Below are positions 9,493-62,385 of a stretch of DNA of 63,954 nucleotides, piece after piece. Each line of letters begins with the position of its first letter. The stretch's first letter is position 1. Position numbers and translations under genes: made by a program. The DNA is from a virus (Duplodnaviria; Caudoviricetes). The notes below the pieces were generated by a model, which made no database searches, was not told where the DNA came from, and saw only the letters and a program-made list of their open reading frames with translations. The stretch lies in IMG/VR virus record IMGVR_UViG_3300004154_000014, positions 1-63,954 of that record; one strand, written 5' to 3'.

Positions 9493-9561
9493 CGTCAGGT
9501 TCCAAGGAGGGCCTAGGTCTCACCGGGCTCTCCCCTCAACTACTTGCTCCTGAAAACTACA

Positions 9562-10164
9562 ATGAACGAGCCATCCGAAACACCGAAACAACAGGAGTTG
9601 TTGGAAGCGCAGACCCAGTGGTTTCACGTCTTCAAGGCGATGATCGAGCAGGGTGACGTGGCCAAGATGGGGCCGCATGCCTTCACGGTCTATGTCGTGA
9701 TCAAGGCCCATACCAATTTCTCGACTGGCCATGCCTTCCCCGGGATTGACGTAATCGCCGAGAAATCCGGGGTCTCCGTCGCGCAGGTAAAGCGCGAACT
9801 GAAAACCCTGGAAGCAGCCGGCTACATCACCAAGGAAAAGCGTGGGCGGTCCAACCATTACATCTTGCGCGAGAAGATCAACGTCACCGACGCACATGGC
9901 CGCCCGCAAGCCGTAGCCACCTGGGACTACCTGCCCAGCAGTGTCCAGCATGCCGTGGCCGACCTGAAAAACGTGCTGGTGTCCGGTGACCTGGCCGGCG
10001 CCAAGGTCGTGCATATCGAGCGCTTGCAGGTGAACGTCACCCACCTGCATGACAACGCGATGAACTTCAACGTGCAGGAGTTCACGGCGGATCTGGAGAA
10101 GCTGCCCAAAGCCATGCGGGACAAGCTGCTGGCCAACTGGAAAAGCCAGCAGGATGACGAGTGA
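9562..10164 (+). CDS. Winged-HTH (HTH_36-like) protein, putative plasmid/phage replication initiator (Rep)
   Basis: AFTVYVVIKAHTNFSTGHAFPGIDVIAEKSGVSVAQVKRELKTLEAAGYITKEKRGRSNHY typical of initiator N-termini; followed by origin-like DNA. Confidence 0.7.
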   Translation: MNEPSETPKQQELLEAQTQWFHVFKAMIEQGDVAKMGPHAFTVYVVIKAHTNFSTGHAFPGIDVIAEKSGVSVAQVKRELKTLEAAGYITKEKRGRSNHYILREKINVTDAHGRPQAVATWDYLPSSVQHAVADLKNVLVSGDLAGAKVVHIERLQVNVTHLHDNAMNFNVQEFTADLEKLPKAMRDKLLANWKSQQDDE

Positions 10165-33573: not shown

Positions 33574-34287
33574 TTACACCCAACCGTTGCGGTACAGGCG
33601 GTAGTTCTCGAGGCCTTCCCGCAGTTCGTTACCCTGGCTTTCCAGGCGCTGACAGGAGGCCTCGAACAGGGCCATGTAGTTGTTCCCCTCATGGAAATCG
33701 TCGGTGATCCCGCCCGGGTTGTGTAGGCGCCAGGCCACGTAGAACAGTAGGGCCTCCAGGTGGGTCCACGGCAGCTCCACCTCCACGTTCGCCGGATTCC
33801 AGCCCAGGCCCCCATGCATGATTCGCGGCGCCGCTGCCCGGTAGAACACCTCCACGTAGTCCCCCTTGACCTCGGCCGGCACGATCACCGTCTGCATCGT
33901 CAGCGCGTGCAAGCTGCCGGTGAAGCTCTGGTGGCCAAGCTCCAGCTCGCAACCATCCTCCCGGTAGACCCGCTCGATCTTGAGCAGGCGGTCGTCGGTG
34001 AAGGGCTCGGCGCTGTCGTCCAGGTACTGCACCGCCTCGCTCGAAGAGGTATTGGACTGGGCGAAACGCTCGGCCAACAGGTAGCTCTCCTGTCCTTCCT
34101 GCCGCACCACCCGGACGCTTCCCAGGCGCAGCAGGAAGCGTTTGTGCAGCTCGAGCACCCCGAGGTTCACCGAGTTGAGCACCTTGACCTGCAAGGCGCC
34201 GGTGAGGCCCAGGGTTTCATTGCCCCCGGCGGCCATCTGCCACAGCTCGCCGTGGGTCAGTTGGTTGAAGATTTCTTGCAGTTTCAT
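33574..34287 (-). CDS. Head-tail adaptor-like virion protein (N4 gp67-like)
   Basis: MKLQEIFNQLTHGEL..ELHKRF, ends RNGWV; next to TerL as in N4. Confidence 0.78.
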   Translation of the reverse strand: MKLQEIFNQLTHGELWQMAAGGNETLGLTGALQVKVLNSVNLGVLELHKRFLLRLGSVRVVRQEGQESYLLAERFAQSNTSSSEAVQYLDDSAEPFTDDRLLKIERVYREDGCELELGHQSFTGSLHALTMQTVIVPAEVKGDYVEVFYRAAAPRIMHGGLGWNPANVEVELPWTHLEALLFYVAWRLHNPGGITDDFHEGNNYMALFEASCQRLESQGNELREGLENYRLYRNGWV

Positions 34288-34293
34288 GGGACC

Positions 34294-35919
34294 TCACACG
34301 ATATAGGAAGACATTCGGCTTGATTCTTGCATTCCAGTGTCCATCTCCCAAATCCCCGAATTGTCCTTGGACATTTCCAGATCCTGGGTCGGGCGCCAGC
34401 TCTTGAGCGCCGAGAGCATCGAGATACTGTCAATAAAGTCATCATGCTTGCTCTTGAAGCCAGCTGGGGAAGCCAGGGAGAGTTCGCTGTACATCTCCAG
34501 CATCACCGGCAGTTCCTTGAACTCGATCGGGAAGAACACCTTGTGCAGCTTGAACTGTGGGACCATGGTCTGGAACCGCACCAGCTTGTTGGTGTTGGGC
34601 CTGATCCCCGGCATGGCTCCGTTGTTGTCCGAGGCCAGGTTGAAGAAGATGTTGCGGTTCATCATCTCGTTCTGAATCCAGCGCACGAATCCCCCCTGCT
34701 GTCCGCTCACCTCGATCCCCACCTCCAGGGGTCGGTAGGTCGAAACCAGACGGAACAGATCGTCGATGGTCACATCCATCAGTTGGCGCTTGCAGATCCC
34801 GTCCACCCAGAACCAGTCCCCGTTCGCACTGTAGGCCCAGACACTGATCACGCAGAAGTCAGCCGATTGCTTCTCGCTGGTGGCGAAGTCGGTGGTGATG
34901 TACCAGTTGAAGAAGCCCTTGTTCCTGACCACATTGCCATGGCGGTACCAGCCAATCTCATGGTCCTGGATCAACCGATCCTCGGCGGACATGATCCGCA
35001 GCATCAGCTCCTGGTTGAAGGTGTCGACCTTGCCAGCCTTCACTGACTGGTCGTACTTTAGCTTCACGTAGTCGTAGTTGAAGCGGTCGTCCCAGGCTCC
35101 CTTGAATTCCTCCCGCGTGCAGGGGAAGCGCTCGCACACCGGATAGACGTTGACCTTCCAGGCTCCCGACTCGATCGCCTTGTACAGCGGGTCCCTGGCA
35201 TTGAACGGGGTTCCCGACCAAATGATCTTGTTGCGCTTGGGGTGCAGGGCGTAGTCGATCGCCTTGTAGACCGTGGCCTCGATGCTGGCGATCACCGTTT
35301 CCGAACGGGCATCCTCGTCCGAGAGCAGGTCGTCGAGCACTGCCAGCTGGGGTCGCTTGCCCATCTCCTTGGAACCCCGTACCCCGGTCTTGGCCCCGTA
35401 GCCCTTGACGATGAACACGTTGCCATCCCGGTTGCGGAACTCCCAGCGGATGTCGGTGAAGCGGATTTCCGGGATGTAATGCCTGAGAAAATCGCTATTT
35501 TCCCAGCGAAATTCCAGGTTTTTCCGCATGTTTTTCACGCCGTTTTCGATCGAATCTGACACGTAAAGGGCCAGATCCACCTTGCCGAAACCAGGCAGCA
35601 CACCGTAGACACCCAGGTAGAGAAACAGGTATTCCCCCAGCAGGGTGGTCTTGGCAGCCCCCCGGAACACCATGTTGGCGATCCGTGGCGTATCCCCAGC
35701 CACCTGGTCCAGCATCCGGTAGTGGAGTACCGGAGTCTTGTTCTCTTCCCCGGCCTCCCCGTTCACCAGCTTGATGAAGGCCACGAATTCCAGGGCGAAG
35801 TCACTGGGGATGTATCCCGGGTCATCCCCGTAGAACGCTTCGTTCAGCCAATCCTCAACGGACTTCGCAGCCAGCACATCCGCCACTGCCGAAGCCAGAG
35901 GGGAAAGAGTGGGCATCAC
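34294..35919 (-). CDS. terL: Terminase large subunit (N4 gp68-like)
   Basis: FRGAAKTT, AVLDDL Walker B, SGTPF, TTDFATS nuclease motif, HDDFIDSIS. Confidence 0.95.
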   Translation of the reverse strand: MMPTLSPLASAVADVLAAKSVEDWLNEAFYGDDPGYIPSDFALEFVAFIKLVNGEAGEENKTPVLHYRMLDQVAGDTPRIANMVFRGAAKTTLLGEYLFLYLGVYGVLPGFGKVDLALYVSDSIENGVKNMRKNLEFRWENSDFLRHYIPEIRFTDIRWEFRNRDGNVFIVKGYGAKTGVRGSKEMGKRPQLAVLDDLLSDEDARSETVIASIEATVYKAIDYALHPKRNKIIWSGTPFNARDPLYKAIESGAWKVNVYPVCERFPCTREEFKGAWDDRFNYDYVKLKYDQSVKAGKVDTFNQELMLRIMSAEDRLIQDHEIGWYRHGNVVRNKGFFNWYITTDFATSEKQSADFCVISVWAYSANGDWFWVDGICKRQLMDVTIDDLFRLVSTYRPLEVGIEVSGQQGGFVRWIQNEMMNRNIFFNLASDNNGAMPGIRPNTNKLVRFQTMVPQFKLHKVFFPIEFKELPVMLEMYSELSLASPAGFKSKHDDFIDSISMLSALKSWRPTQDLEMSKDNSGIWEMDTGMQESSRMSSYIV

Positions 35920-37747: not shown

Positions 37748-38146
37748 GTGGATCTACTTCACAATCTCGGCTGCTGGTGTGTTGCTCCACCATGGCCTGA
37801 TCTGGCCAGAGGACCTCCCGATGCTCAAGCGCCAGCTCGAACACGGCCAGATCCTCGAGACAGGAATCCTCCACTGATGGACGCCTACCACAACAGCCAC
37901 GTCTTGCGGTACCGCTACAACCTGATGCGAATGGACCTGCTACTGGGCGATAAGGATGCAGCCCTATTGCACTTCCTCTACATCAAGCGTGAGGCCTACG
38001 CGATCATCCGAGCCCTCGATGAATCTGCAGAATCAACCATGATCAAAATCCTCAAACATGAGTTCCCTGTGGGTATCAATACCTGGGAGGAGTTCTGCCT
38101 CCATCACCTGCCCTACAAGACCCACACCACCAAGCTCTTCTCCTGA
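37748..38146 (+). CDS. Hypothetical protein (start uncertain)
   Basis: ORF in early block with plausible C-terminal half. Confidence 0.4.
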   Translation: MDLLHNLGCWCVAPPWPDLARGPPDAQAPARTRPDPRDRNPPLMDAYHNSHVLRYRYNLMRMDLLLGDKDAALLHFLYIKREAYAIIRALDESAESTMIKILKHEFPVGINTWEEFCLHHLPYKTHTTKLFS

Positions 38147-50427: not shown

Positions 50428-50955
50428 ATGCCCACTCCCGCTCCGGTCCACGATCCAAAGATCAAACAACAACTAAAGGACGCCCTCTACGAGCTGCTCT
50501 ACCAACCGGTGCAGCGGCGCTTCAAGGAGCGTCTGGATGCAATCATCCGGCACAACGTCCAGCTGCTCTCCTCGCCCTTCGAGGCTTTCACCTACAAGGG
50601 GGAGGTCTACAAGATCGATCCCCAGGCGCGGGTACCCCTGCATCTGGATCGGCTGGACTCGAGCCTGCGTCCGATCATGGACAGCTACCTGGCGGAAGTG
50701 GAGAAGCTCAACCGTGAAGAACTTCCCTTCGCGGTGGGTTACATCACCAAAGTCCTCAACGCCTCGAACGACCTCCACGACTACATCAAGCTGCTCCCCG
50801 AATCGTTGCATCCAGTCATCCAGCAGGCCATCGACCGATGCCCCTGCCGGACGGAACACCTGGGCGCCGACGAAGTGAAGCAGTTTCAGGCGGACAATGA
50901 TCGGGAGCTGCAGATCCTCAAGCAGCGCCTGCTCCACAACCTCCTGTTGCCGTGA
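50428..50955 (+). CDS. Hypothetical protein (N4 gp38-like position)
   Basis: AGGA RBS; lies between helicase and DNA polymerase. Confidence 0.7.
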   Translation: MPTPAPVHDPKIKQQLKDALYELLYQPVQRRFKERLDAIIRHNVQLLSSPFEAFTYKGEVYKIDPQARVPLHLDRLDSSLRPIMDSYLAEVEKLNREELPFAVGYITKVLNASNDLHDYIKLLPESLHPVIQQAIDRCPCRTEHLGADEVKQFQADNDRELQILKQRLLHNLLLP

Positions 50956-50974
50956 GGTCTCATCAGGAGCTTCC

Positions 50975-53056
50975 ATGCGTCATCTGTCCTTCAAGGAATC
51001 GGCTACCTACCCGGTCGCCCTGCTGCTCAAACCCAACGCCTTCCTCCAGTCCGAAATCCTCCGCCACTACGGCGAACCCCTGGCAGCCGCCGGCATACCC
51101 CTCGACGATCTGATCGCCATGACCCTGGACAACCCGTCCGAGGGCAAGCTGACCGTGAAGTTCGCCAAGGAGTATGCCGACAAGCTGCTCCAGGCCCTCG
51201 ATACTGTGGACACCCGGCTGCTCTATTGCACCGACGCTACCTACTTCAAGGTGCTCACCAAGCAGACCAAGGCCGAGCCCCACCTGGGCTATGCCCTGCC
51301 CTGTGCCCTGCCTGGCTTCGAACACATGCAGGTGGTACTGGGCATCGGCTACCCGAGCCTGTTCTACAACCCGGCGCTGTCAGCTAAGCTCGACCTCTCG
51401 CTCAAGGCCTTGGTTGGGCAGTACGCTGGCAACTACCGACCACCGGGAGAGGGCATCATCCACCACGCCGAGTACCCCGCGAGCGTGGTGGAGATCAAGG
51501 CGGCACTGGACAAGCTGCACCAGTACCCCTACCTGGCAGCCGACATCGAGGCATTCAGCCTCAACCATTGGCTGGCTGGGATCGGCTCGATATGTTTTAC
51601 GTGGAACACTCATGAAGGCCTGGCCTTTCTGATCGACTACGTACCCCTCGCCGAGCCGGTTTGGGACAACCCCAAGAAGCAAACCACCGGGCAATTCGGC
51701 CAGCAAGTCTTCAACCCCGAAGTGCGTGCCCTGTTGCGTGAATTCTTCGAGACCTACCGGGGCACCTTGCGCTGGCACCGGGCAAGCTTCGACCTCAAGG
51801 TACTGATCTACCAGCTGTGGATGTCCTCGATCGACGATACCGCCGGGCTGCTACGGGGCCTGGAGGTGATGACCCGACACTTCGACGACACCCTGGTGAT
51901 CACCTACCTGGCCACCAACAGTTGTGCTGGCAACGAACTGGGCCTGAAAGCCAATGCCCACGAGTTCGCCGGCAACTGGGCCAACGAGGAGATCAAGGAC
52001 ATCCGGCGGATCAAGCCAGGTGAGCTACTGCAGTACAACCTGGTCGACGGCTTGTCCACCAACTACGTCTTCGACAAGCACTACCCGACCCTGGTCGCCG
52101 ACCAGCAGGAGGAGCTTTACCAGGGCTTCATGAAAGACAGCTTGCGGGTGCTGATCCAGACCATGCTGACCGGGATGCCGGTCAAGCCGGCGCGGGTCCA
52201 GGAGGTCAAGGAGATCCTCGAGACCAAGCGTGACGAGCTGTTCGACAGCATCGTCGCCAACCCCCTGGTCAAGGCGCTCAATCTGGTGTTCCAGAAGAAA
52301 GCCCAGGAGGCCGCCAACGCCAAGCTGAAGGTCAAGCAACACCCACTGGAACATTTCAGCGGCGTGATCTTCAACCCGGGCAGTCCGCAACAGGTTCAGT
52401 ACCTGCTCTACGAGCAGATGGGCCTGCCGGTGCTCGACAAGACCGACAGCGGGCAGCCGTCCACCGGCGGCGATACCCTGGCCAAGCTGATCCACCACAC
52501 CGAGGTGCCAGCCTACAAGGCGGTGATCCAGGCCCTGATCGACCTCTCCGGGGTGGTCAAGATCCTCTCTTCATTCATCCCGGCGCTGGAAGGTGCGGTG
52601 CCGATCCCGGGCACCGAGTACGCCCTGCTGTTCGGTAACTTCAACCTCGGCGGTGCGGTCTCCGGCCGGCTTTCCTCCTCGGACCCCAACCTGCAGAACC
52701 TGCCGGCCAAAGGCCTCTGGGGCAAGCTGATCAAGTCCTGCTTCATCGCTGCCCCGGGCTGGCTGTTCGCCGGATCAGACTTTGCCAGCCTTGAGGACCG
52801 CATCAACGCCCTGTTGACCAAGGACAGAAACAAACTGCGTGTGTACACGGATGGGTTCGACGGCCATTGCCTGCGAGCCTTTGCTTATTTTCCTAGTGAG
52901 TTGCCTGGGATAACCCAGGCCCAAGAAACTGATCGCTGTTTCCGGATCACGATAAAGGGCCAAACTTTTCTATGTAAAAGTGGGGACTTTATTATAACCT
53001 CAGCGGGAGAGCACATTCCAGTAGAGCAGTTTTATGATTCCTATCAAAGAGTATGA
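50975..53056 (+). CDS. Family A DNA polymerase, N-terminal fragment (3'-5' exonuclease + motif A)
   Basis: AADIEAF exo I, YNLVDG exo III, SGRLSSSDPNLQNLP, GSDFASLEDRI, DGHCLRA; ends before motif B. Confidence 0.92.
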   Translation: MRHLSFKESATYPVALLLKPNAFLQSEILRHYGEPLAAAGIPLDDLIAMTLDNPSEGKLTVKFAKEYADKLLQALDTVDTRLLYCTDATYFKVLTKQTKAEPHLGYALPCALPGFEHMQVVLGIGYPSLFYNPALSAKLDLSLKALVGQYAGNYRPPGEGIIHHAEYPASVVEIKAALDKLHQYPYLAADIEAFSLNHWLAGIGSICFTWNTHEGLAFLIDYVPLAEPVWDNPKKQTTGQFGQQVFNPEVRALLREFFETYRGTLRWHRASFDLKVLIYQLWMSSIDDTAGLLRGLEVMTRHFDDTLVITYLATNSCAGNELGLKANAHEFAGNWANEEIKDIRRIKPGELLQYNLVDGLSTNYVFDKHYPTLVADQQEELYQGFMKDSLRVLIQTMLTGMPVKPARVQEVKEILETKRDELFDSIVANPLVKALNLVFQKKAQEAANAKLKVKQHPLEHFSGVIFNPGSPQQVQYLLYEQMGLPVLDKTDSGQPSTGGDTLAKLIHHTEVPAYKAVIQALIDLSGVVKILSSFIPALEGAVPIPGTEYALLFGNFNLGGAVSGRLSSSDPNLQNLPAKGLWGKLIKSCFIAAPGWLFAGSDFASLEDRINALLTKDRNKLRVYTDGFDGHCLRAFAYFPSELPGITQAQETDRCFRITIKGQTFLCKSGDFIITSAGEHIPVEQFYDSYQRV

Positions 53057-53747
53057 AGTGCAATACACCATTGCTGAAAATGGTGATGTCACCCGTAGGG
53101 AAACAGGGCGGATACTCCGCCCTAGTCTCAATAAGCAAACAGGTTATCTGTATGTTGGGTTGTGGAAGCACAACATTGGTAAGACGTTTGCTGTACATCG
53201 GCTGGTTGCTGAGCATTACATTTCCAATCCAGCAAACAAACCTTTCGTCAATCACAAAGACAGTATAAGAACCAATCCGCACAAGGATAATCTGGAATGG
53301 TGTACTCAAGGGGAAAATATACTCCACGGGTATGCCCAAGGATTCATGAGCCAGGAGAATCGCCGGAATTTCAAAGACTTCGAGTTGGATCTGCTTCTTC
53401 AATCCGTCCTTGCTGGAGAGACTATGACAACTCTCGCATCGGCTGCTGACGTGGGCTTAGGGCGACTGACGATCAACTTGCGTAAATATGCGGATACTGC
53501 TGGATTACTTGAAAAATTTCTGGAGGAGTTGTACCGACAAAAGTGTGAAAGGAACGCGCAGGCCAACGTGAATAAACGCAGACCTATTCTGCAGTGGACA
53601 ATCCAAGGCACTCTAGTATCGGAGCATGAAAGTGCAACAGCTGCTGCTAGAACTCTGGGGCGTTCTTCTGCAGGTTCTATATTCAATGCCCTTAATCCCG
53701 GTAAGACTCAGCAGAAGGCTTTTGGTTACTTATGGACATTCAAGTAA
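53034..53747 (+). mobile_element. Free-standing HNH homing endonuclease inserted in the DNA polymerase gene
   Basis: VHRLVAEHYI..VNHKDSIRTNPHKDNLEWCTQGENILH; NUMOD-like C-terminus; AT-richer than genome; overlaps both polymerase fragments. Confidence 0.9.
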
Positions 53748-53860
53748 ACGGTGACTTCTCAATAGAAGAAGTCACCACAGATATATTCAACGTCTTTCAA
53801 ATTAACCGGATTAAAAAGGAGTATGGGGCTCTTCGAGATGAATCGAAGAGCCCCACTTGA
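53732..53860 (+). CDS. DNA polymerase middle fragment (42 aa, first half of motif B)
   Basis: Manual translation MDIQVNGDFSIEEVTTDIFNVFQINRIKKEYGALRDESKSPT-stop; not in ORF track (<60 aa). Confidence 0.8.
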   Translation: MDIQVNGDFSIEEVTTDIFNVFQINRIKKEYGALRDESKSPT

Positions 53861-54537
53861 CTTTCCTCCTTACCTACGGAGGTTCCTGGCGCGGCTTGAT
53901 GGCCAACCTCGGCTGGCCCAAAGAGAAAGCCCTGCGTATTGAGGCCAACTACCACGCGCTGTACGTCGAGTCCGACGAGTGGGTGAAAGCCAAGATCGAC
54001 GAAGCCGCCCGGCTGGGTTACGCCACCTCGGCCTTTGGACTGCGCATCCGGGCACCCTTGTTGACCCAGACCCTGCGGGGGAGGGCCAAGTGTCCCCATG
54101 AGGCGGAAGCCGAAGCCAGGACGCTTGGAAATGCCATCAGTGGCCAGTCCTATGGCCTGCTGACCAACCGGGCCGCCAACGCCTTCATGGCCAAGGTCTG
54201 GGCCTCGCCCTACCGGTTGGACATCCTCCCCGTGGCGTTCATCCACGATGCGATCTACCTGCTGATCCGCAGCCGTCCGGAGATCGTCGAGTGGGTTAAC
54301 CGCGAGCTGATCACCGAGATGCGATGGCAGGAGCTGCCGGAGATCACCCATGACCAGGTCAAGCTGGGCGCCGAACTGGACTTGTTCTATCCCAGCTGGG
54401 CCTACCCGGTCACCCTGCCCAACGGTGCCGATGCCGCCACCATTCTCGAACGCTGCCAGGCCCACCGGGACGAGCTGCACGAGAAGGGTGTTTTGCCTGC
54501 TTTACCCACGAAGAAAACCCCCATGTCTACCCCCTGA
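53857..54537 (+). CDS. DNA polymerase C-terminal fragment (second half of motif B + motif C)
   Basis: TFLLTYGG, RTLGNAISGQSYG, FIHDAIY. Confidence 0.9.
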   Translation: MTFLLTYGGSWRGLMANLGWPKEKALRIEANYHALYVESDEWVKAKIDEAARLGYATSAFGLRIRAPLLTQTLRGRAKCPHEAEAEARTLGNAISGQSYGLLTNRAANAFMAKVWASPYRLDILPVAFIHDAIYLLIRSRPEIVEWVNRELITEMRWQELPEITHDQVKLGAELDLFYPSWAYPVTLPNGADAATILERCQAHRDELHEKGVLPALPTKKTPMSTP

Positions 54538-55651: not shown

Positions 55652-55890
55652 CCGAAGACGTGCGTTCCGCCCAGATCCACCAGGCGTATGACGCGCTGGA
55701 AGATGAGCTGCCGGGCTATCTGGTCACCATGCTCAAGCTGTTCTGCCTGCGGGAGCTGATGGGTGACTCGATGCACCAGGAGCTTGAGGCGCTGATCAAG
55801 GGCCTCGACGAAGACGGAGAACTGGAGGAGGGGGTTGCCGATAGCGCCCTGCTCCTCATCGAGGGCCTTCCGCTCCCTACCACCCCCTGA
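55648..55890 (+). CDS. Hypothetical acidic protein
   Basis: ATGA overlap. Confidence 0.6.
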   Translation: MTEDVRSAQIHQAYDALEDELPGYLVTMLKLFCLRELMGDSMHQELEALIKGLDEDGELEEGVADSALLLIEGLPLPTTP

Positions 55891-55903
55891 CCCCGAGGAC
55901 CCT

Positions 55904-56140
55904 ATGCAAGCCTTCAAAATTGTCGCCAATACCGAAGTTCCGGAAGCGGTCGGCGAGACCGTCAACCTGAACACCTATCTGCAGGGGTCGAGCTACTTCA
56001 GCGCGATCCTTCACAATGACGAGGTGCCCGGTCGGCTCGCCGGGGCTAAAGCCCACCTGCAGGAACACTTCGGGGCCTGGTGCCAGGCACGGATCACCCT
56101 ATCGGCGGTGGAGTGCGAGATCGAGCCGAGCGATCCCTGA
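55904..56140 (+). CDS. Hypothetical protein
   Basis: GAGGA RBS; followed by terminator. Confidence 0.6.
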   Translation: MQAFKIVANTEVPEAVGETVNLNTYLQGSSYFSAILHNDEVPGRLAGAKAHLQEHFGAWCQARITLSAVECEIEPSDP

Positions 56141-56169
56141 CGTCCGTCCCATTACACCTGCTGTACCGG

Positions 56170-56194
56170 AACCCGCCCGCGTGGCGGGTTTTTT
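56170..56194 (+). terminator. Rho-independent terminator
   Basis: AACCCGCC..GGCGGGTT + T-run. Confidence 0.8.
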
Positions 56195-56308
56195 CTGACC
56201 GCTTGACGGCTTTCCATCAAATAATGCCTGGTTAGCGCCAACTTTCTGAATTTGTCCGACTGGGCATATCCTCCCCCTAACTTACCGATTTACCCAAAGG
56301 AGAACTGC

Positions 56309-57205
56309 GTGAAATCGAAACTTGCAATCGGCTTTTTCGTTGCCGGCATGACAGGCGCCGGCCTTGCACTGGCCGCCCCCGATACCCGGGATATGGTCAA
56401 GTCCATCCAGACCCAGGGCTGGTTCAAGACCTGCCCGGGCATCATGGCCAGCCTGAGCGCCATGCCGGAACCGTCCGACCATGCCAGTGATACCTGGCGT
56501 GACTTCGTGCTGCTGCGCGCCGGCTGCCTGACTGAGGAACACCGGGAAGTCGAGGCGATCGCCTTCGTTAAGTCCCGGATGGCAGCCACTGGCCGGCGCG
56601 ATGCGAACCTGCTGAACTTCCTCGGAATCAGCCAACTGCGTGCCGGCAAGGACCAGGAGGCCATCGCCAGCTTCGAGGAAGCCCTGCAATACGGTGTCCA
56701 CGACCTCACCAAGAAGGCGATCTACAGCAAGATGGCCGGGGCCTACACTAAGATCGCCAGCCAAACCGGTAGCCGCGACCCTGAGCTGATGGCCAAAGCC
56801 GAGCAATATGGCCAACTCGCCGTCGACCACAACACCGGTCGTGGCGATCCGAGCATTTCCGCCCAGCTAGCGACCATTAAGGCACTGCGCGAGGACTATG
56901 CCGGGGCGATCCGCCTGTTCGACGATGCCCTGGCCCGCAACACCGCCTACCCCCACTGGAAATCGGAGAACATGCGCAAGGTCATGCAGGCCGAGTTCAC
57001 CATGGGTAAAGGTCAAGCGCTGTACAACCAGGGCGCCAAGACCCAAGGAGCTGCGCTGATGGCCCAGGCTGTCGAGATCGCTCCGACCGACAACCTCAAG
57101 ACCGTGATGAGCGCTTTGCGCGAAGTCACCCTCAACCCAGTCCCGGCCGGGCAACTGCCCGAGATCCTTTTGGTACCCTCTGTTCCTCTCGATGAAGACG
57201 TATAA
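56309..57205 (+). CDS. Exported TPR-repeat protein
   Basis: AAGGAG RBS + GTG; signal peptide ending ALA-A; TPR-like LLNFLGISQLRAGKDQEAIASFEEALQY and EDYAGAIRLFDDALA. Confidence 0.78.
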   Translation: MKSKLAIGFFVAGMTGAGLALAAPDTRDMVKSIQTQGWFKTCPGIMASLSAMPEPSDHASDTWRDFVLLRAGCLTEEHREVEAIAFVKSRMAATGRRDANLLNFLGISQLRAGKDQEAIASFEEALQYGVHDLTKKAIYSKMAGAYTKIASQTGSRDPELMAKAEQYGQLAVDHNTGRGDPSISAQLATIKALREDYAGAIRLFDDALARNTAYPHWKSENMRKVMQAEFTMGKGQALYNQGAKTQGAALMAQAVEIAPTDNLKTVMSALREVTLNPVPAGQLPEILLVPSVPLDEDV

Positions 57206-57215
57206 GGAAAGCTCT

Positions 57216-57380
57216 ATGAAAAAATTGTTCGCTGCCTCCTTGCTGCTGACCGGTCTACTGGTCAGCACCATGAGCATGGCCGGCTACCAGTCGGCGATGA
57301 TCCAACGGTGCGATGCAGTGGGTCACTGCTACGTGGTCAATGAACCCTGGGATACCAACCCGCCGCCCTGCTGGATCTGA
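57216..57380 (+). CDS. Small exported peptide (54-aa precursor, 3 Cys in mature part)
   Basis: AAGGA RBS; MKKLFAASLLLTGLLVSTMSMA signal peptide; followed by terminator. Confidence 0.72.
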   Translation: MKKLFAASLLLTGLLVSTMSMAGYQSAMIQRCDAVGHCYVVNEPWDTNPPPCWI

Positions 57381-57398
57381 TTTAAAGGATGGTCCACC

Positions 57399-57425
57399 AA
57401 GCCCGCTTGCGCGGGCTTTTTTTTT
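57399..57425 (+). terminator. Rho-independent terminator
   Basis: AAGCCCGC-TTGC-GCGGGCTT + long T-run. Confidence 0.85.
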
Positions 57426-57439
57426 GCCTGGAGAAATAT

Positions 57440-57859
57440 ATGTGCAAGATCACCACCGCCATGCTGGTCGTCAGCCTGGGCAAGATCGCGTATCACCGGA
57501 TGGACACCGGCCAGATCAACTTCCCCGAGGATCTGGGCATCCCCCTCGATCGCTTCCTCGGTGGCTGCCTGATCGCTGCAGAAGCTGCTGGCGACCTGCT
57601 CGACCAGGTGGTCGACTAGGACAGCTACCATGCCCTGCCCGAGACCGGCTGTTTCAGCTACGACCTCCTCAAGGTCGGTGTGCTCGATGAGTCCCATCCA
57701 GAAAGCTGGTCAGCCCACACAGACCTGGCCACCTACCTGAGCCTACACCTGTCACCAACCGACTGGTACTCGCTGGCCGAGAACCATCGAGTACCGCAGG
57801 GACTCTGTCATCACACCACGGCCTGGCTGTGTGCCCGCGGCATCCCCTTGAAACCATAG
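57440..57859 (+). pseudogene. Hypothetical gene with in-frame amber at 57617-57619
   Basis: GGAG RBS + ATG 57440; frame stays open 79 codons past TAG to TAG 57857-57859. Confidence 0.55.
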
Positions 57860-57878
57860 AAGATAATCGAGAAGGTTT

Positions 57879-58150
57879 AACCATGAATTAATTGAACATG
57901 AACCATGATTCACCAGTACACGAACCATGATCTAGTGAGCCATGACTCTCATGGAATCGTGATTCAGTAGATCATGATCATGTGATTACTGGTTTCATGG
58001 TTCATGTAACAATTGTTCATAGATCAGTAGTTCATGGTTCATGTTTCACGGATTGGCATTCCCTTAAACACGAATTCATGAGCCGGTGAGTCATGGTTAG
58101 GGGTTCAATAACTATGAGTTCATGAGGTAGCATCTCATGGTTCATGATCT
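57879..58150. repeat. parS/parH-like centromere array (AACCATGA / TCATGGTT, CATG-core repeats)
   Basis: Many copies, direct in the left half and inverted in the right half, AT-rich, immediately upstream of parA; further copies at ~59141-59156. Confidence 0.8.
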
Positions 58151-58165
58151 CGTACAGGACCACAC

Positions 58166-58810
58166 ATGATCACAATCATCGGGAGCAACAAGGGCGGGGC
58201 AGGGAAGACCACCACGGCCACCAACATCGCTGTTTGGCTAGCCAAACAGGGAAAAGAGGTATGCCTGGTCGATGCTGATCCGCAGCGATCCGCCTGCCAG
58301 TGGTACGCGGAACGTGAGGATGCTGGAATTGAGCCAGCAATCATCCTGATCGAGCGCCGGGACAATATCTCCAGTGCCCTCAAGTCACTCGGCGAAAAAT
58401 ATGCCCACGTCATCGTCGACGTGGCGGGCCGGAATAGCCGTGAGCTGATCACCGGCGCTGCTGCTGCAGATCTGGTCATCGCCCCGCATCAGGCCAGTCA
58501 GTTTGATCTCAACACCATGGCCGAGCTACAGGAGCAGATCATTCGAGTCCGAGACCTTAACCCTGATCTGCGGGTCCTGGCTTACCACACCATGGCCAGC
58601 ACCAACCCTTCCGTTCGTGAAACTGAGCGGAAGGAGTTCCTGACCTTCATAGCCGAGATCCCCGAGATCGAGGTGATCAATGCGGTCGGCTACTACCGCA
58701 AGGTCTATCGGGATGTGATCGTCACAGGGCGGTCGGTCATCGAGTCCGACAACCCAAGCGCCGTCGCTGAAATCGAAGCTCTTTGCCAGGAAGTATTCCC
58801 CCATGGTTAA
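58166..58810 (+). CDS. parA: ParA (type Ib, ParF-like) partition ATPase
   Basis: Deviant Walker A KGGAGKTT, LVDADPQRS, VIVDVAG; 214 aa with no N-terminal HTH. Confidence 0.93.
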   Translation: MITIIGSNKGGAGKTTTATNIAVWLAKQGKEVCLVDADPQRSACQWYAEREDAGIEPAIILIERRDNISSALKSLGEKYAHVIVDVAGRNSRELITGAAAADLVIAPHQASQFDLNTMAELQEQIIRVRDLNPDLRVLAYHTMASTNPSVRETERKEFLTFIAEIPEIEVINAVGYYRKVYRDVIVTGRSVIESDNPSAVAEIEALCQEVFPHG

Positions 58811-59147
58811 ACCACTCAGCGCTCGCGCAAACGCAAAACCTACCCTGGACCAGGACAAGCTGGAGAAGCTGACTACCGAGCTGGTCGACCGGCCTTTCGG
58901 CGGAGAGGTAAGCCAGAAGGAAAATTCCCTGGTCCTCGAGGTCAAGTCCGAGGCCTCGGCTCCAGAACAAAAGACGGAGAAGCCGGCACGGGTCAAGCGC
59001 CGATCGATCACCATCAGCCTTCCCGAATCGCAGATCGTTGCGCTGGAATATGCGGCTGTAGAGAACAAATATGCCGCCGGCAATGAGCCGTCCACCGTCA
59101 GCGCCATCATTTCGAAAGCATTGACCGACGCTGGCTACAAACCATGA
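58803..59147 (+). CDS. ParG-like small centromere-binding partner (putative RHH)
   Basis: Overlaps parA end; low-structure N-terminus + RSITISLPES..TVSAIISKAL ribbon-helix-helix-like C-terminus. Confidence 0.72.
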   Translation: MVKPLSARANAKPTLDQDKLEKLTTELVDRPFGGEVSQKENSLVLEVKSEASAPEQKTEKPARVKRRSITISLPESQIVALEYAAVENKYAAGNEPSTVSAIISKALTDAGYKP

Positions 59148-59224
59148 ACCATGAATTACGGTATCGTGATCTACCAGAACAGGAACCATTAGAGTTTTTC
59201 TAGTACACCTGGCCGTACCGCCCG

Positions 59225-59248
59225 AGCCCGCCCCGCGCGGGCTTTTTT
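59225..59248 (+). terminator. Rho-independent terminator after par operon
   Basis: AGCCCGC..GCGGGCT + T-run. Confidence 0.8.
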
Positions 59249-59408
59249 GCGCCCCGCGGCGTCTCCCCTGGGATAACGCCGGCTTATCAATTCTTAGCGC
59301 CAGCTATGAGCTGGCGCTTTGCTATCTGTATTTCGTACTGTGGTACGTACCACATACCAATTACATACCGAATCGTCCCTGACTTATATCAAGTGGAGAA
59401 CCCTAGCC

Positions 59409-59873
59409 ATGGGCTACACCCATTATTACGACCAGCAGCGCACCGTCCCGCCCGAGCAATGGACGCTGATCTGCGACGGCTTTCGTCAGCTACTGGTCTT
59501 CTCGCTGCTGGAAGGCAAAACCCTGCCCATCCAACGCGAGCTGGACAATCCTTCCCCCGCGGAAATCGATGAAGAGATAATCGCCTTCAACGGGATCGGC
59601 AATGATGGGCATGAAACCATGGTGCTGCGACGCCAGCTCGTAGCGTTTGCCGGGAACGCCGGCCCCCCCTCTATCCATAACTTCCAGTGCTGCAAGACCA
59701 ACCGCAAACCCTACGACCTGGCAGTCACCGCCCTGCTGGTGATCGCCGACTACTATTCCCCGTGCAGCTGGGAAATTTCCAGCGACGGTGGATCGGAGGG
59801 CTTCAACGAGGCTCTTGCCATGGTCCTGGGAATGCTCCCCAATGTTCACAACCCCCACAGGATTAGCACATGA
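59409..59873 (+). CDS. Hypothetical phage protein
   Basis: MGYTHYY..IAFNG..HET..CKTNRKPYDLAV..ISSDG, a common phage family. Confidence 0.75.
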   Translation: MGYTHYYDQQRTVPPEQWTLICDGFRQLLVFSLLEGKTLPIQRELDNPSPAEIDEEIIAFNGIGNDGHETMVLRRQLVAFAGNAGPPSIHNFQCCKTNRKPYDLAVTALLVIADYYSPCSWEISSDGGSEGFNEALAMVLGMLPNVHNPHRIST

Positions 59874-60641: not shown

Positions 60642-60959
60642 ATGCCCTGGGGTAACAATCCGGATTTTCTCAGCCTACTTGGCGCCTTCCTCATCAGTTT
60701 GATTTCCGGCTTCATTTCGATTGCCCAGCGAATTGCCCGTGGGTATCAGGCGAATATTCTCTGGGTCGCCTCGGAGTTTCTCGCTGCAATTCTCTGCGGT
60801 TATTTGATGTGGGATGTTTATCCGATCGTCGCCCCCACGCTGCCCAATTGGGCCACCTTGCCGGTCATGGTGGCCCTGGCTTCCCATGTTGGTGGTCGCT
60901 CGTTCCAGGTGCTTGAGCTGGCTATTCTCAAGCGGTATCGTACCGATACATCTGTTTAA
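60642..60959 (+). CDS. Putative holin (LydA-like, 3 TM)
   Basis: LISLISGFISIAQRI, EFLAAILCGY, LASHVGGRS, basic C-terminus. Confidence 0.72.
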   Translation: MPWGNNPDFLSLLGAFLISLISGFISIAQRIARGYQANILWVASEFLAAILCGYLMWDVYPIVAPTLPNWATLPVMVALASHVGGRSFQVLELAILKRYRTDTSV

Positions 60960-61689: not shown

Positions 61690-62385
61690 ATGCCCCTCAA
61701 TAGCCTGATCGAGCTGCACAAGTTCAACTTCACCGGTAGCGAAGTCGATACCGACGGCTTCGCCAAGACCCATTGGAATCCGAAGGTTCTGCCCAACGGC
61801 AACCTGGAGGAAACCCCCGAAGGCACCCTGGAACTCTGGGCGCCGACCAAGGGCGCCACCACCCCGGGCTCGAAGAAGACCCGCTCGGAATTCCGTGAAG
61901 TCCAGGAAGGTGTCGAGGACGAATTCAACTGGCAGATTGGCCAGTTCGACCAGTTCCTCAAGGTCACCCTGTTGATCGAGAAGGTCACCCCCGGCGGGCG
62001 GGTGTGTATCGGCCAGGTGCATGTCATCGACAACGACCGTCCACCGATCAAGATCGTGGTGGATGCCAACACCCGCAAGCTGCGGCTGATGTACCGCACC
62101 ACCTTCAATCAGCCGACCGATGTCGGCGAGACCCTGCTGGCCAACCTCGACCTGAGCAAAGCGATCGCCTACTCGCTGCACGTCACCCCTGGCGGAACGG
62201 TCTCGGTCAGCGTCTCCAACAATGGCGTCAGCGCCACCCTTGCCAAGCAGCTCGATGGCAGCTGGGCTTACCGCTGGCTATACTTCAAGGCCGGGATCTA
62301 CAACCAGGACGAGGCCACCGCCGATACCCTGGAAGAGTACGGCACCCATGCCTACCTGACCCGCCTGCTGATTACCCGCACCTGA
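61690..62385 (+). CDS. Polysaccharide lyase family 7 (alginate lyase)
   Basis: PL7 signature motifs RSEFRE, IGQVH, YFKAGIYNQ. Confidence 0.88.
   Translation: MPLNSLIELHKFNFTGSEVDTDGFAKTHWNPKVLPNGNLEETPEGTLELWAPTKGATTPGSKKTRSEFREVQEGVEDEFNWQIGQFDQFLKVTLLIEKVTPGGRVCIGQVHVIDNDRPPIKIVVDANTRKLRLMYRTTFNQPTDVGETLLANLDLSKAIAYSLHVTPGGTVSVSVSNNGVSATLAKQLDGSWAYRWLYFKAGIYNQDEATADTLEEYGTHAYLTRLLITRT

Follow-up and report, generated by a model that had tools for sequence, protein, structure and literature searches.

Positions 57879-59190 of the DNA analyzed here, a single IMG/VR virus record (IMGVR_UViG_3300004154_000014; 63,954 bases, classed as linear; hereafter the window), quite probably form a type Ib partition cassette that is intact and of the par2 kind known from pB171; its likeliest source is a plasmid of the Pseudomonadaceae. 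The cassette runs from a repeat array through parA and the gene for a small partner protein, predicted to have the ribbon-helix-helix fold, to a second repeat array, and the replicon that carries it is an N4-like (Schitoviridae) phage. It is a known kind of cassette on an unexpected replicon, and its main value may lie in the testable plasmid-like behavior that it suggests for some N4-like phages. The features that place it in type Ib are a small ParA, a deviant Walker A motif, and a partner predicted to form ribbon-helix-helix dimers; repeats that may serve as centromere and operator are enriched upstream of parA. Its elements are these:

57879..57946, unstranded: left arm of the upstream array, with five heptads in the CCATGAA orientation
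57948..58147, unstranded: right arm of the upstream array, with 12 heptads in the TTCATGG orientation, among them three tandem pairs or triples
58166..58810, plus strand: parA, encoding a small Walker-type partition ATPase of 214 amino acids (aa)
58803..59147, plus strand: partner gene (the parB/parG analogue), encoding 114 aa and overlapping parA by 8 nucleotides (nt)
59140..59190, unstranded: downstream site, the parC2 equivalent, with two exact tandem heptads and a 23-nt stretch resembling the left arm

Repeat arrays and genes of the cassette

An earlier reading of this DNA from its letters alone (the sequence-only reading) had noted repeats with a CATG core upstream of parA, and these occur far beyond chance. 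The 5-mer CATGA/TCATG is found 21 times in the 287 bp at 57879-58165, against 0.66 times per 287 bp in the rest of the window; none of 5000 shuffles of the 287 bp matched that count, and the 12 top-ranked positions of a sliding 287-bp window scored for this 5-mer all lie in the same region. The exact 8-mer AACCATGA/TCATGGTT occurs ten times in the 63,954 bases, nine of them within 57879-59154, and the looser pattern WTCATGR is matched 60 times where 30.9 matches are expected (0 of 100 shuffles). The G+C content of the 287 bp before parA is 41%, compared with 60% for the window. The sole exact copy of AACCATGA beyond the par region, at 38035, has a one-mismatch copy 19 nt away (38035-38061) and is probably a chance occurrence at a background of 3.75 near-heptads per kb.

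When the unit is defined as a heptad with at most one mismatch to TTCATGG, the definition to which that background applies, 17 units fall in 57870-58165 and two in the 964 bp of coding sequence. Five of the 17 read CCATGAA on the plus strand and make up the left arm (57881, 57896, 57903, 57925, and 57940); the other 12 read TTCATGG and make up the right arm, starting at 57948 and continuing through 58141. The orientation flips once, at about 57947. The mirror arrangement described earlier, direct units followed by inverted ones, is therefore there, but the arms are unequal, at about 68 and about 200 bp, so that the word "halves" was loose. The 7-nt period that had also been noticed is seen in five tandem sets (57896/57903, 57994/58001, 58031/58038/58045, 58134/58141, and 59142/59149). 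Successive spacings are 15, 7, 22, and 15 in the left arm and 46, 7, 15, 15, 7, 7, 30, 15, 29, 15, and 7 in the right; inside the arms, 14 of 15 spacings are 7, 15, 22, 29, or 30, and the remaining one is 46. Such spacings describe a lattice with a step of about 7.3 bp, some of whose slots are degenerate. The left arm also holds AACCATGA at 57879, 57901, and 57923, in steps of 22 bp. By analogy with known systems, the right arm is probably a centromere and operator in one, the putative equivalent of parC1.

The heptads recur at the end of the partner gene, as had been claimed: 59130-59195 contains two exact copies, arranged in tandem at 59142-59155, that overlap the stop codon (TGA, 59145-59147). 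The downstream site extends, with degenerate units, to about 59190, and the 23 nt at 59167-59189 are 83% like the left-arm unit at 57906-57928. The sequence-only reading called this a satellite. The site is real, but because the par2 layout places sites on both sides of parAB, it is better regarded as the expected second site than as an oddity.

The ParA protein matches the Pfam families AAA_31, CbiA, MipZ, and ParA and the PHROG family phrog_164 ("ParA-like partition protein," E 3e-44). Its closest solved relatives are ParF of TP228 (4dzz) and the ParA of 5u1g, at E values of about 7e-13, and residues 8-210 align with residues 9-201 of the 206-aa ParF. The deviant Walker A motif with its signature lysine is NKGGAGKT, at residues 8-15; in an alignment of 12 family members N8, K9, G10, G11, K14, T15, and T16 are invariant, and the 74 invariant columns of that alignment include the Walker motifs. 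Because the protein combines a deviant Walker A with the lack of an N-terminal DNA-binding extension, we place it among the small ParAs of type Ib, in agreement with the earlier assignment of the module.

The partner matched no Pfam or PHROG family. A HMMER search of 1.84 billion representative sequences found 12 proteins at E ≤ 0.001, of which ten were aligned, two long ones (2215 and 630 aa) being omitted; all ten have a C-terminal block and, at the N terminus, a helix bearing the motif D[RK]P[YF]G. In the window's protein the conserved helix and the motif, here DRPFG, occupy residues 17-33 and are followed by a long linker and a C-terminal domain at about residues 64-113. A profile of the family compared with solved chains matched only EndoAI, a ribbon-helix-helix antitoxin, at E 0.023. 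The AlphaFold2 model has a mean pLDDT of 72.7, rising to about 90 over residues 70-110, a region in which an extended stretch is followed by two helices. In a fold search of 48,161 chains that is independent of Foldseek, the recognized rows were all ribbon-helix-helix proteins (CopA, PutA, NikR, Arc, omega, ParG, and the ParB of pCXC100), with Z scores from 4.9 to 2.8 over about 43 residues. Two copies of residues 60-114 gave a homodimer score of 0.66, whereas the best of three controls gave 0.00; a mark of 0.66 was reached by 20 of 30 solved pairs and by 1 of 23 single chains. In the dimer runs contact agreement was at least 96% and pLDDT at least 84, and an antiparallel pairing centered on residue 70 joins residues 67-73 of one chain to those of the other, as in the classic ribbon. 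Since dimers of this type have been solved, the pass possibly reflects memory on the part of the predictor. Structure prediction, which the sequence-only reading had proposed as a check for a ribbon-helix-helix fold, thus favors that fold, and the partner is predicted to dimerize as a ribbon-helix-helix protein through its C-terminal domain.

Repeats flanking a parA-partner pair are shared with related loci. We examined 14 loci for which both flanks were available (the window, Pantoea phage G19, phage D6, and 11 plasmids), asking for a 6-mer present at least two times before parA and around the partner's stop and comparing each locus with 1000 shuffles; a further plasmid (L007) was left out since its fetched stretch ends at the last base of the record, and two other loci (L008 and L014) were read outside the test. 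The shared 6-mer was matched by none of the shuffles in six loci, namely the window and plasmids of Azotobacter, P. juntendi, Enterobacter, P. aeruginosa ZPPH1, and Erwinia amylovora, and by 22-39 of 1000 shuffles in six further loci. The repeat word varies by locus, being of the AATTATGA type in the Azotobacter plasmid and of the GTATGAA type in Enterobacter and G19, and the locus-specific words often stand at 7-nt spacing; a word that changes from one locus to the next fits sites that co-evolve with a ribbon-helix-helix partner. The upstream array of the window is as large as or larger than those of the plasmid relatives that were read. A scan for the window's own tandem-heptad pattern returned 59 viral loci and at least 120 genome stretches, the densest of which are unrelated repeats. 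Of 139 such loci (59 viral and 80 genomic), none encodes a ParA or partner relative nearby (tblastn, E ≤ 1e-3), and they yielded neither a donor nor a twin that shares the site word.

Three smaller features lie within or around the cassette, which is a self-contained unit between terminator-like hairpins:

57399..57428, plus strand: terminator-like hairpin and T run, stem at 57399-57418 with eight pairs, six of them G-C
58801..58813, unstranded: possible lone internal site, CATGGTTAAACC, at the parA/partner junction
59223..59250, plus strand: terminator-like hairpin, identified by folding energy, with an 8-bp G+C-rich stem and then six U

The first hairpin ends the small-gene unit that precedes the par module. 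The last probably marks the end of the par transcript; its minimum free energy is -19.9 kcal/mol with a z score of only -1.5, and a terminator pattern scan did not call it. At the junction, CATGGTTAAACC repeats 57874-57885, at the first left-arm unit, perfectly over 12 nt in inverted orientation, and the 8-mer search records CCATGGTT at 58801 with one mismatch. The copy hints at a single internal site or is due to chance, about 0.06 such pairs being expected by chance in the region on a rough estimate.

The phage replicon and the origin of the cassette

That the replicon is N4-like, as had been proposed from the letters, is borne out by several genes. A 3516-aa open frame at 10351-20901 matches, over its middle 1000 aa, a 3493-aa open frame of Pantoea phage G19 (PV483189; E 4e-34). 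The window also encodes matches to phrog_2166 and phrog_2051 (N4-like RNA polymerase; RNA polymerase II subunits), an N4-type single-strand binding protein, and an SU10-type portal (Pfam), and its structural genes have about 69% nucleotide identity to those of the Pseudomonas N4-like phages LUZ7, KPP21, and Ka3. The cassette lies between a split DNA polymerase gene (50897-54537) and a holin gene (60642-60959); the polymerase gene is in two pieces, 50897-53056 and 53857-54537, with an HNH endonuclease gene (53034-53747) between them. Among PHROG and Pfam matches no Rep gene adjoins the cassette. Elsewhere in the window, a protein of 206 aa encoded at 9544-10164 contains an HTH_36 domain, weakly matches PHROGs of replication initiation (O-like and DnaD-like), and could matter for plasmid-like replication, and a 127-aa open reading frame (ORF) at 38170-38550 matches PHROG 6271, "toxin," of the moron/host-takeover category (E 1.3e-8).

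The relatives of the cassette are mostly plasmid-borne. ParA matched 2985 plasmid records at E ≤ 1e-20, including a very large group of E. coli, Klebsiella, and Salmonella plasmids at 53% identity, and its best plasmid match is to an Azotobacter chroococcum plasmid (73.5% identical), whose partner is 36% identical to the window's over 117 aa. By tblastn the partner matched 39 plasmid records (Pseudomonas 24, Enterobacter 8, others 7), in every case at or just after a gene for an AAA ATPase or ParA, the product often being named RHH or CopG. A maximum-likelihood tree built from 15 ParAs pairs the window with the Azotobacter plasmid as its sister (support 96/91), and of the eight rows in the group that contains them, all but the window are Pseudomonadaceae plasmids (85/96). 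Judged by these sequence relationships, the cassette was most likely captured from a plasmid of that family. An alginate lyase domain gene is present at 61690-62385 (Pfam Alginate_lyase2, E 2e-33); together with the Azotobacter and Pseudomonas kinship of ParA, it points to an alginate-producing host in the Pseudomonadaceae.

In the phage collection ParA matched 47 records, the best being G19 at 59% identity. The best 40 of these are mostly phages of plasmid-prophage types (the P1-like D6, telomere phages, and P2-like phages of Burkholderia), and G19 is the only one of the 40 shown to be N4-like, which supports the earlier remark that such a module is unexpected in an N4-like phage. The ParA of D6 is 42.5% identical to the window's, and those of the other plasmid prophages (telomere phages such as phiHAP-1 and those of the VP882 type, and Burkholderia KS14) are 25-31% identical. 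D6, the telomere phages, and KS14 are known or annotated to live as plasmid prophages; unlike the window, none of these carriers is N4-like. In Escherichia phage D6 (1-1622) a StbA/ParM-type pair stands directly upstream of a par2-type parA and a small partner gene, the same double par layout as in E. coli plasmid NZ_CP106930. A tblastn search of the phage collection with the partner gave no match at E ≤ 0.1, though the G19 partner is alike in pairwise comparison (54% over 37 aa in the C-terminal domain). Single-protein scans of IMG/VR returned one distant locus for ParA (24% identity) and none for the partner, and when the partner was used in a word-index protein search, nothing beyond the window's own protein was retrieved.

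G19 merits closer description. Its capsid is of the N4 type and 44% identical to that of the window. Both G19 and an IMG/VR contig, G009, encode a 214-aa ParA that is 59% identical to the window's, and both have short repeats on the two flanks, in arrays much smaller than those of the window and made of another word. G009 is a complete genome of 73,312 bp, has direct terminal repeats, and contains a 3491-aa open frame matched by the window's virion polymerase; because its ParA and partner read the same as those of G19, we assign it to the same lineage. In that lineage the cassette lies on the strand opposite its neighbors. A nucleotide search with the G19 locus found no close relative. The record identifier of G009 lacks the 3300 prefix of the other loci and is presumably that of a genome rather than a metagenome data set; if so, the phage travelled with a cultured isolate. 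In all, 13 IMG/VR contigs carry this ParA family, and the giant polymerase was found in one of them, G009; the virion polymerase fragment was unmatched in the other 12, several of which are fragments, so that absence is not shown. G19 also carries, side by side at 34255-35189, genes annotated as a SpoVT/AbrB protein, a PemK/MazF-like toxin, and a UmuD-like protein, which are maintenance genes of plasmid or prophage style in an N4-like phage. In the ParA tree G19 is placed with plasmids of Rahnella, Erwinia, and Actinobacillus, in a group whose branching is unresolved, and its ParA is 77% identical to that of a Rahnella plasmid as against 59% to the window's, so that the two phage cassettes look like separate acquisitions. 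Sequence kinship thus suggests that a par2-type pair has been acquired twice, independently, in N4-like phages, each time from plasmids of the respective host group.

The three sequencing runs that hold the whole of a 6-kb test stretch are freshwater runs (X1, X2, and X3), and in each the k-mer contigs break at 55773-55801 and at 59203-59231. Between the breaks a 3459-bp contig (55773-59231) has depths of 43.3, 78.3, and 89.4 in X1, X2, and X3, and the phage flanks have depths of 38.5/39.7, 78.1/76.3, and 85.8/86.8. A second path exists: a 173-bp contig lies on 55773-55842 with seven differences and joins to 59202 (depths 37.3, 64.2, and 67.2), and an 847-bp contig follows 59203-59276 before departing from the window's sequence. 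The stretch between the two joints is

55843..59202, unstranded: segment present in the window and skipped in a co-occurring relative, the joint running from 55842 to 59202 in runs X1-X3

and its 3.36 kb contain a 78-aa gene, a gene for a secreted protein with tetratricopeptide repeats (TPR), small genes, and the par module. We read this as a co-occurring relative without 55843-59201, the cassette itself being part of the window's genome; both cassette proteins are found on three contigs, the longest of 77,847 bp. Alignment of the two ends of the segment was not meaningful and showed no direct repeats. Contigs of a soil run, 95-97% like the window, cover 56368-57603 and diverge just before the par module. 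Within the segment, the secreted-looking TPR protein is encoded together with a protein of 62 aa whose start is signal-like (56252-57380), in an interval bounded by terminator-like hairpins. At the other end of the record a 149-bp contig on 63895-63954 has about twice the depth of its neighbors in the three runs (68.6, 126.4, and 163.4); this end could be a repeat such as a terminal repeat. A further run, X4, covers 9 of 30 bins and is uninformative on habitat.

Possible roles of a partition cassette in an N4-like phage

By analogy with type Ib systems, dimers of the partner would sit next to one another on the TTCATGG-type heptads, binding them with paired beta-strands and coating about 270 bp upstream of parA and about 50 bp downstream of the partner gene, and the upstream complex may also repress the operon. 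The conserved N-terminal motif of the partner would stimulate the ATPase of nucleoid-bound ParA-ATP, so that DNA bearing the sites, here the phage genome, would be spaced over the nucleoid and passed to both daughter cells. Binding, autoregulation, and partition activity are all inferred from such relatives. Because the set is complete and its 19 cognate sites lie on phage DNA, phage DNA is the natural candidate for the cargo. We think that the cassette works and that its likeliest benefit is persistence of the phage genome in dividing cells, under a carrier state or pseudolysogeny. To our knowledge, all well-studied phages with a complete set of ParA, partner, and site use it to maintain a plasmid prophage (P1, N15, and their relatives). 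We put forward, as a possibility that is far from assured, the broader view that some N4-like phages are not purely lytic and that lineages bearing such a cassette persist for many generations as low-copy extrachromosomal genomes. This view would cover the freshwater phage of the window and, separately, the G19 lineage with its pair of toxin-antitoxin type, whether the state is like that of a phage-plasmid or is a stabilized carrier state. One report gives a precedent for carriage: among resistant clones of P. aeruginosa, 2 of 15 from one strain and 2 of 35 from another retained DNA of the N4-like phage LUZ7, as did 0 of 15 from each of three other strains (PMC8776877), from which it appears that carriage of N4-like genomes occurs.

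A number of observations weigh against this interpretation of the cassette and its role. On the side of the partner, a Foldseek search of the PDB with the model returned nothing at E ≤ 0.001 (the best match was MetJ, at E 1.9), and the Z scores of the other fold search, at most 4.9, are low in absolute terms; such values follow from the small size of the domain, and the weight rests on the uniformity of the list. The shared flanking 6-mer was absent from 2 of the 14 loci tested (L013 and L019), the flank repeat of another (L023) is weak (220 of 1000 shuffles, not significant), and a consensus pattern scan for sigma-70-type promoters found none in 57200-59500, where shuffles give 1.5. The window contig is 82% complete, Pfam searches of its 61 other ORFs found no integrase, repressor, or toxin-antitoxin family, the co-occurring relative does without the segment, and 0.05 of the words were present in the single RNA run. 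The three freshwater runs may belong to one campaign and may themselves be the source of the contig, and so count as one observation. N4-like genomes are linear with terminal repeats, and we know of no documented plasmid-like state for N4-like phages.

Other accounts of the cassette must be weighed as well. It might be passenger DNA, a neutral plasmid pick-up so recent that it is still intact and of no use to the phage. The stretch is mosaic and rich in morons, and the gap in the co-occurring relative (55843-59201), the abrupt divergence of the soil contigs, and the failure of the IMG/VR single-protein scans to find a close relative of the module all suit such an event; we nevertheless consider it unlikely, since both genes and the 19 sites are intact, the upstream array is not reduced in comparison with those of plasmid relatives, and a distant N4-like lineage, that of G19 and G009, has separately acquired a par2-type pair from plasmids of Enterobacterales type and keeps it intact. 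The cassette might also serve lytic growth, by spreading or anchoring replicating phage DNA on the nucleoid during a long latent period, or the partner might act mainly as a repressor for which the arrays are operators. Here the sites are indeed in cis on phage DNA, N4-type phages lyse their hosts late and with the nucleoid still in place, and type Ib partners such as ParG and omega are autorepressors too. A role of this sort seems to us rather improbable, however, given that a high copy number makes active partition unnecessary and that most N4-like phages do without the cassette, G19 being the one carrier shown among the best 40 of 47 phage records. That the pair or its sites should be a weapon of incompatibility, unseating a resident plasmid with the same centromere, is very improbable: the nearest relatives are plasmids of the likely host group, as the idea would have it, yet the heptad word is unlike that of every plasmid relative read, none of the 139 heptad-pattern loci encodes a ParA or partner relative nearby, and a full cis-trans set on one molecule suggests that this molecule is the cargo.

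Two further accounts concern the DNA itself, and to neither do we attach more than slight credence. A plasmid fragment could have been misjoined into a phage contig, and the breaks shared by the contigs of all three runs, with a second path at each, are what such a chimera might produce. In all three runs, however, the 3459-bp piece follows the phage flanks in depth, whereas the 173-bp path departs from them in X2 (64.2 against about 78) and X3 (67.2 against about 86), X1 being too close to call (37.3 against 38.5/39.7); the words shared at the junctions are only about 30 nt long, below the read length; both proteins recur on the three contigs mentioned above; and the remainder of the segment (the TPR gene and others) is not plasmid-like. 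The array could, alternatively, be a replication origin composed of iterons rather than a partition site. Three left-arm units at 22-bp spacing look like iterons, and in plasmid relatives the cassette stands beside rep genes (TrfA, RepA), but the same word appears again at the partner's stop, the word varies with the partner protein among relatives, no Rep gene is adjacent in the window, and the heptad lattice fits binding by a ribbon-helix-helix protein.

If the cassette does promote persistence, the consequences extend beyond this phage. N4-like phages are treated as obligately lytic and for that reason are favored for phage therapy and biocontrol, whereas a complete set of cis and trans partition functions is equipment otherwise found in phages that live as plasmid prophages. 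A working cassette would open to genetics a poorly understood condition of virulent phages, the carrier state or pseudolysogeny, and, were the persistence view true, "lytic by taxonomy" would be an unsafe assumption. G19, which is in culture, offers a way to test the idea. A literature search for ParA or partition genes in N4-like phages or Schitoviridae found no description in those portions of the sources that it made available.

Relation to known partition systems

The sequence-only reading compared the module with ParF/ParG of TP228 and with delta/omega of pSM19035. ParG and omega both appear in the fold list of the partner, and the logic of the sites is that of pSM19035, but by sequence the nearest family appears to be par2 of pB171 rather than either of these. 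ParG has the ribbon-helix-helix fold and a flexible tail at its N terminus; the sites of TP228 are 4-bp boxes with an 8-bp period that lie upstream only. ParF is the best solved relative of the window's ParA (E 6.5e-13, residues 8-210), and ParG is in the fold list of the partner (1p94, Z 4.2); TP228 is nonetheless only a distant relative in sequence, ParG superposes poorly on the partner (root mean square deviation 9.4 A), and, unlike the TP228 boxes, the window's units are 7 nt long, occur at spacings of 7, 15, 22, 29, and 30, and lie on both flanks. In pSM19035, which belongs to the Firmicutes, one ribbon-helix-helix dimer is bound per 7-bp unit, and omega sites lie at several promoters rather than flanking one operon. 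The resemblance here is in the contiguous 7-bp units, direct and inverted, to which the five tandem sets of the window, in both orientations, correspond, and in the fold, omega being in the partner's list (1irq and 2bnw, Z 4.0). The pSM19035 heptad word is unlike the window's, and omega gave no sequence match to the partner when the profile was compared with solved chains, where EndoAI alone was found.

One paper describes par2 of pB171 as consisting of ParA, ParB, and a parC to which ParB binds, and lists constructs in the order parC1, parA, parB, parC2 (PMC4270457). The window has the same arrangement, with short repeats before parA and after the partner gene, and so does E. coli plasmid NZ_CP106930, in which parM/parR is divergent from parA (214 aa) and parB (91 aa). 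This parMR and parAB layout is, we take it, the "double par locus" of pB171. The window's ParA is 53% identical over 211 aa to the E. coli plasmid ParA, and the partner aligns with the ParB of NZ_CP106930 from end to end (34% over 107 aa, pairwise E 5e-10). The differences are that the repeat word is of the TTCATGG type in the window and of the TATGAA/ATTTCAT type in the E. coli plasmid, that the window has no neighboring parMR locus, that the linker of its partner is about 20 aa longer, and that its replicon is an N4-like phage. With this cassette the par2 family would gain a new heptad specificity and an unusually large, two-armed upstream array.

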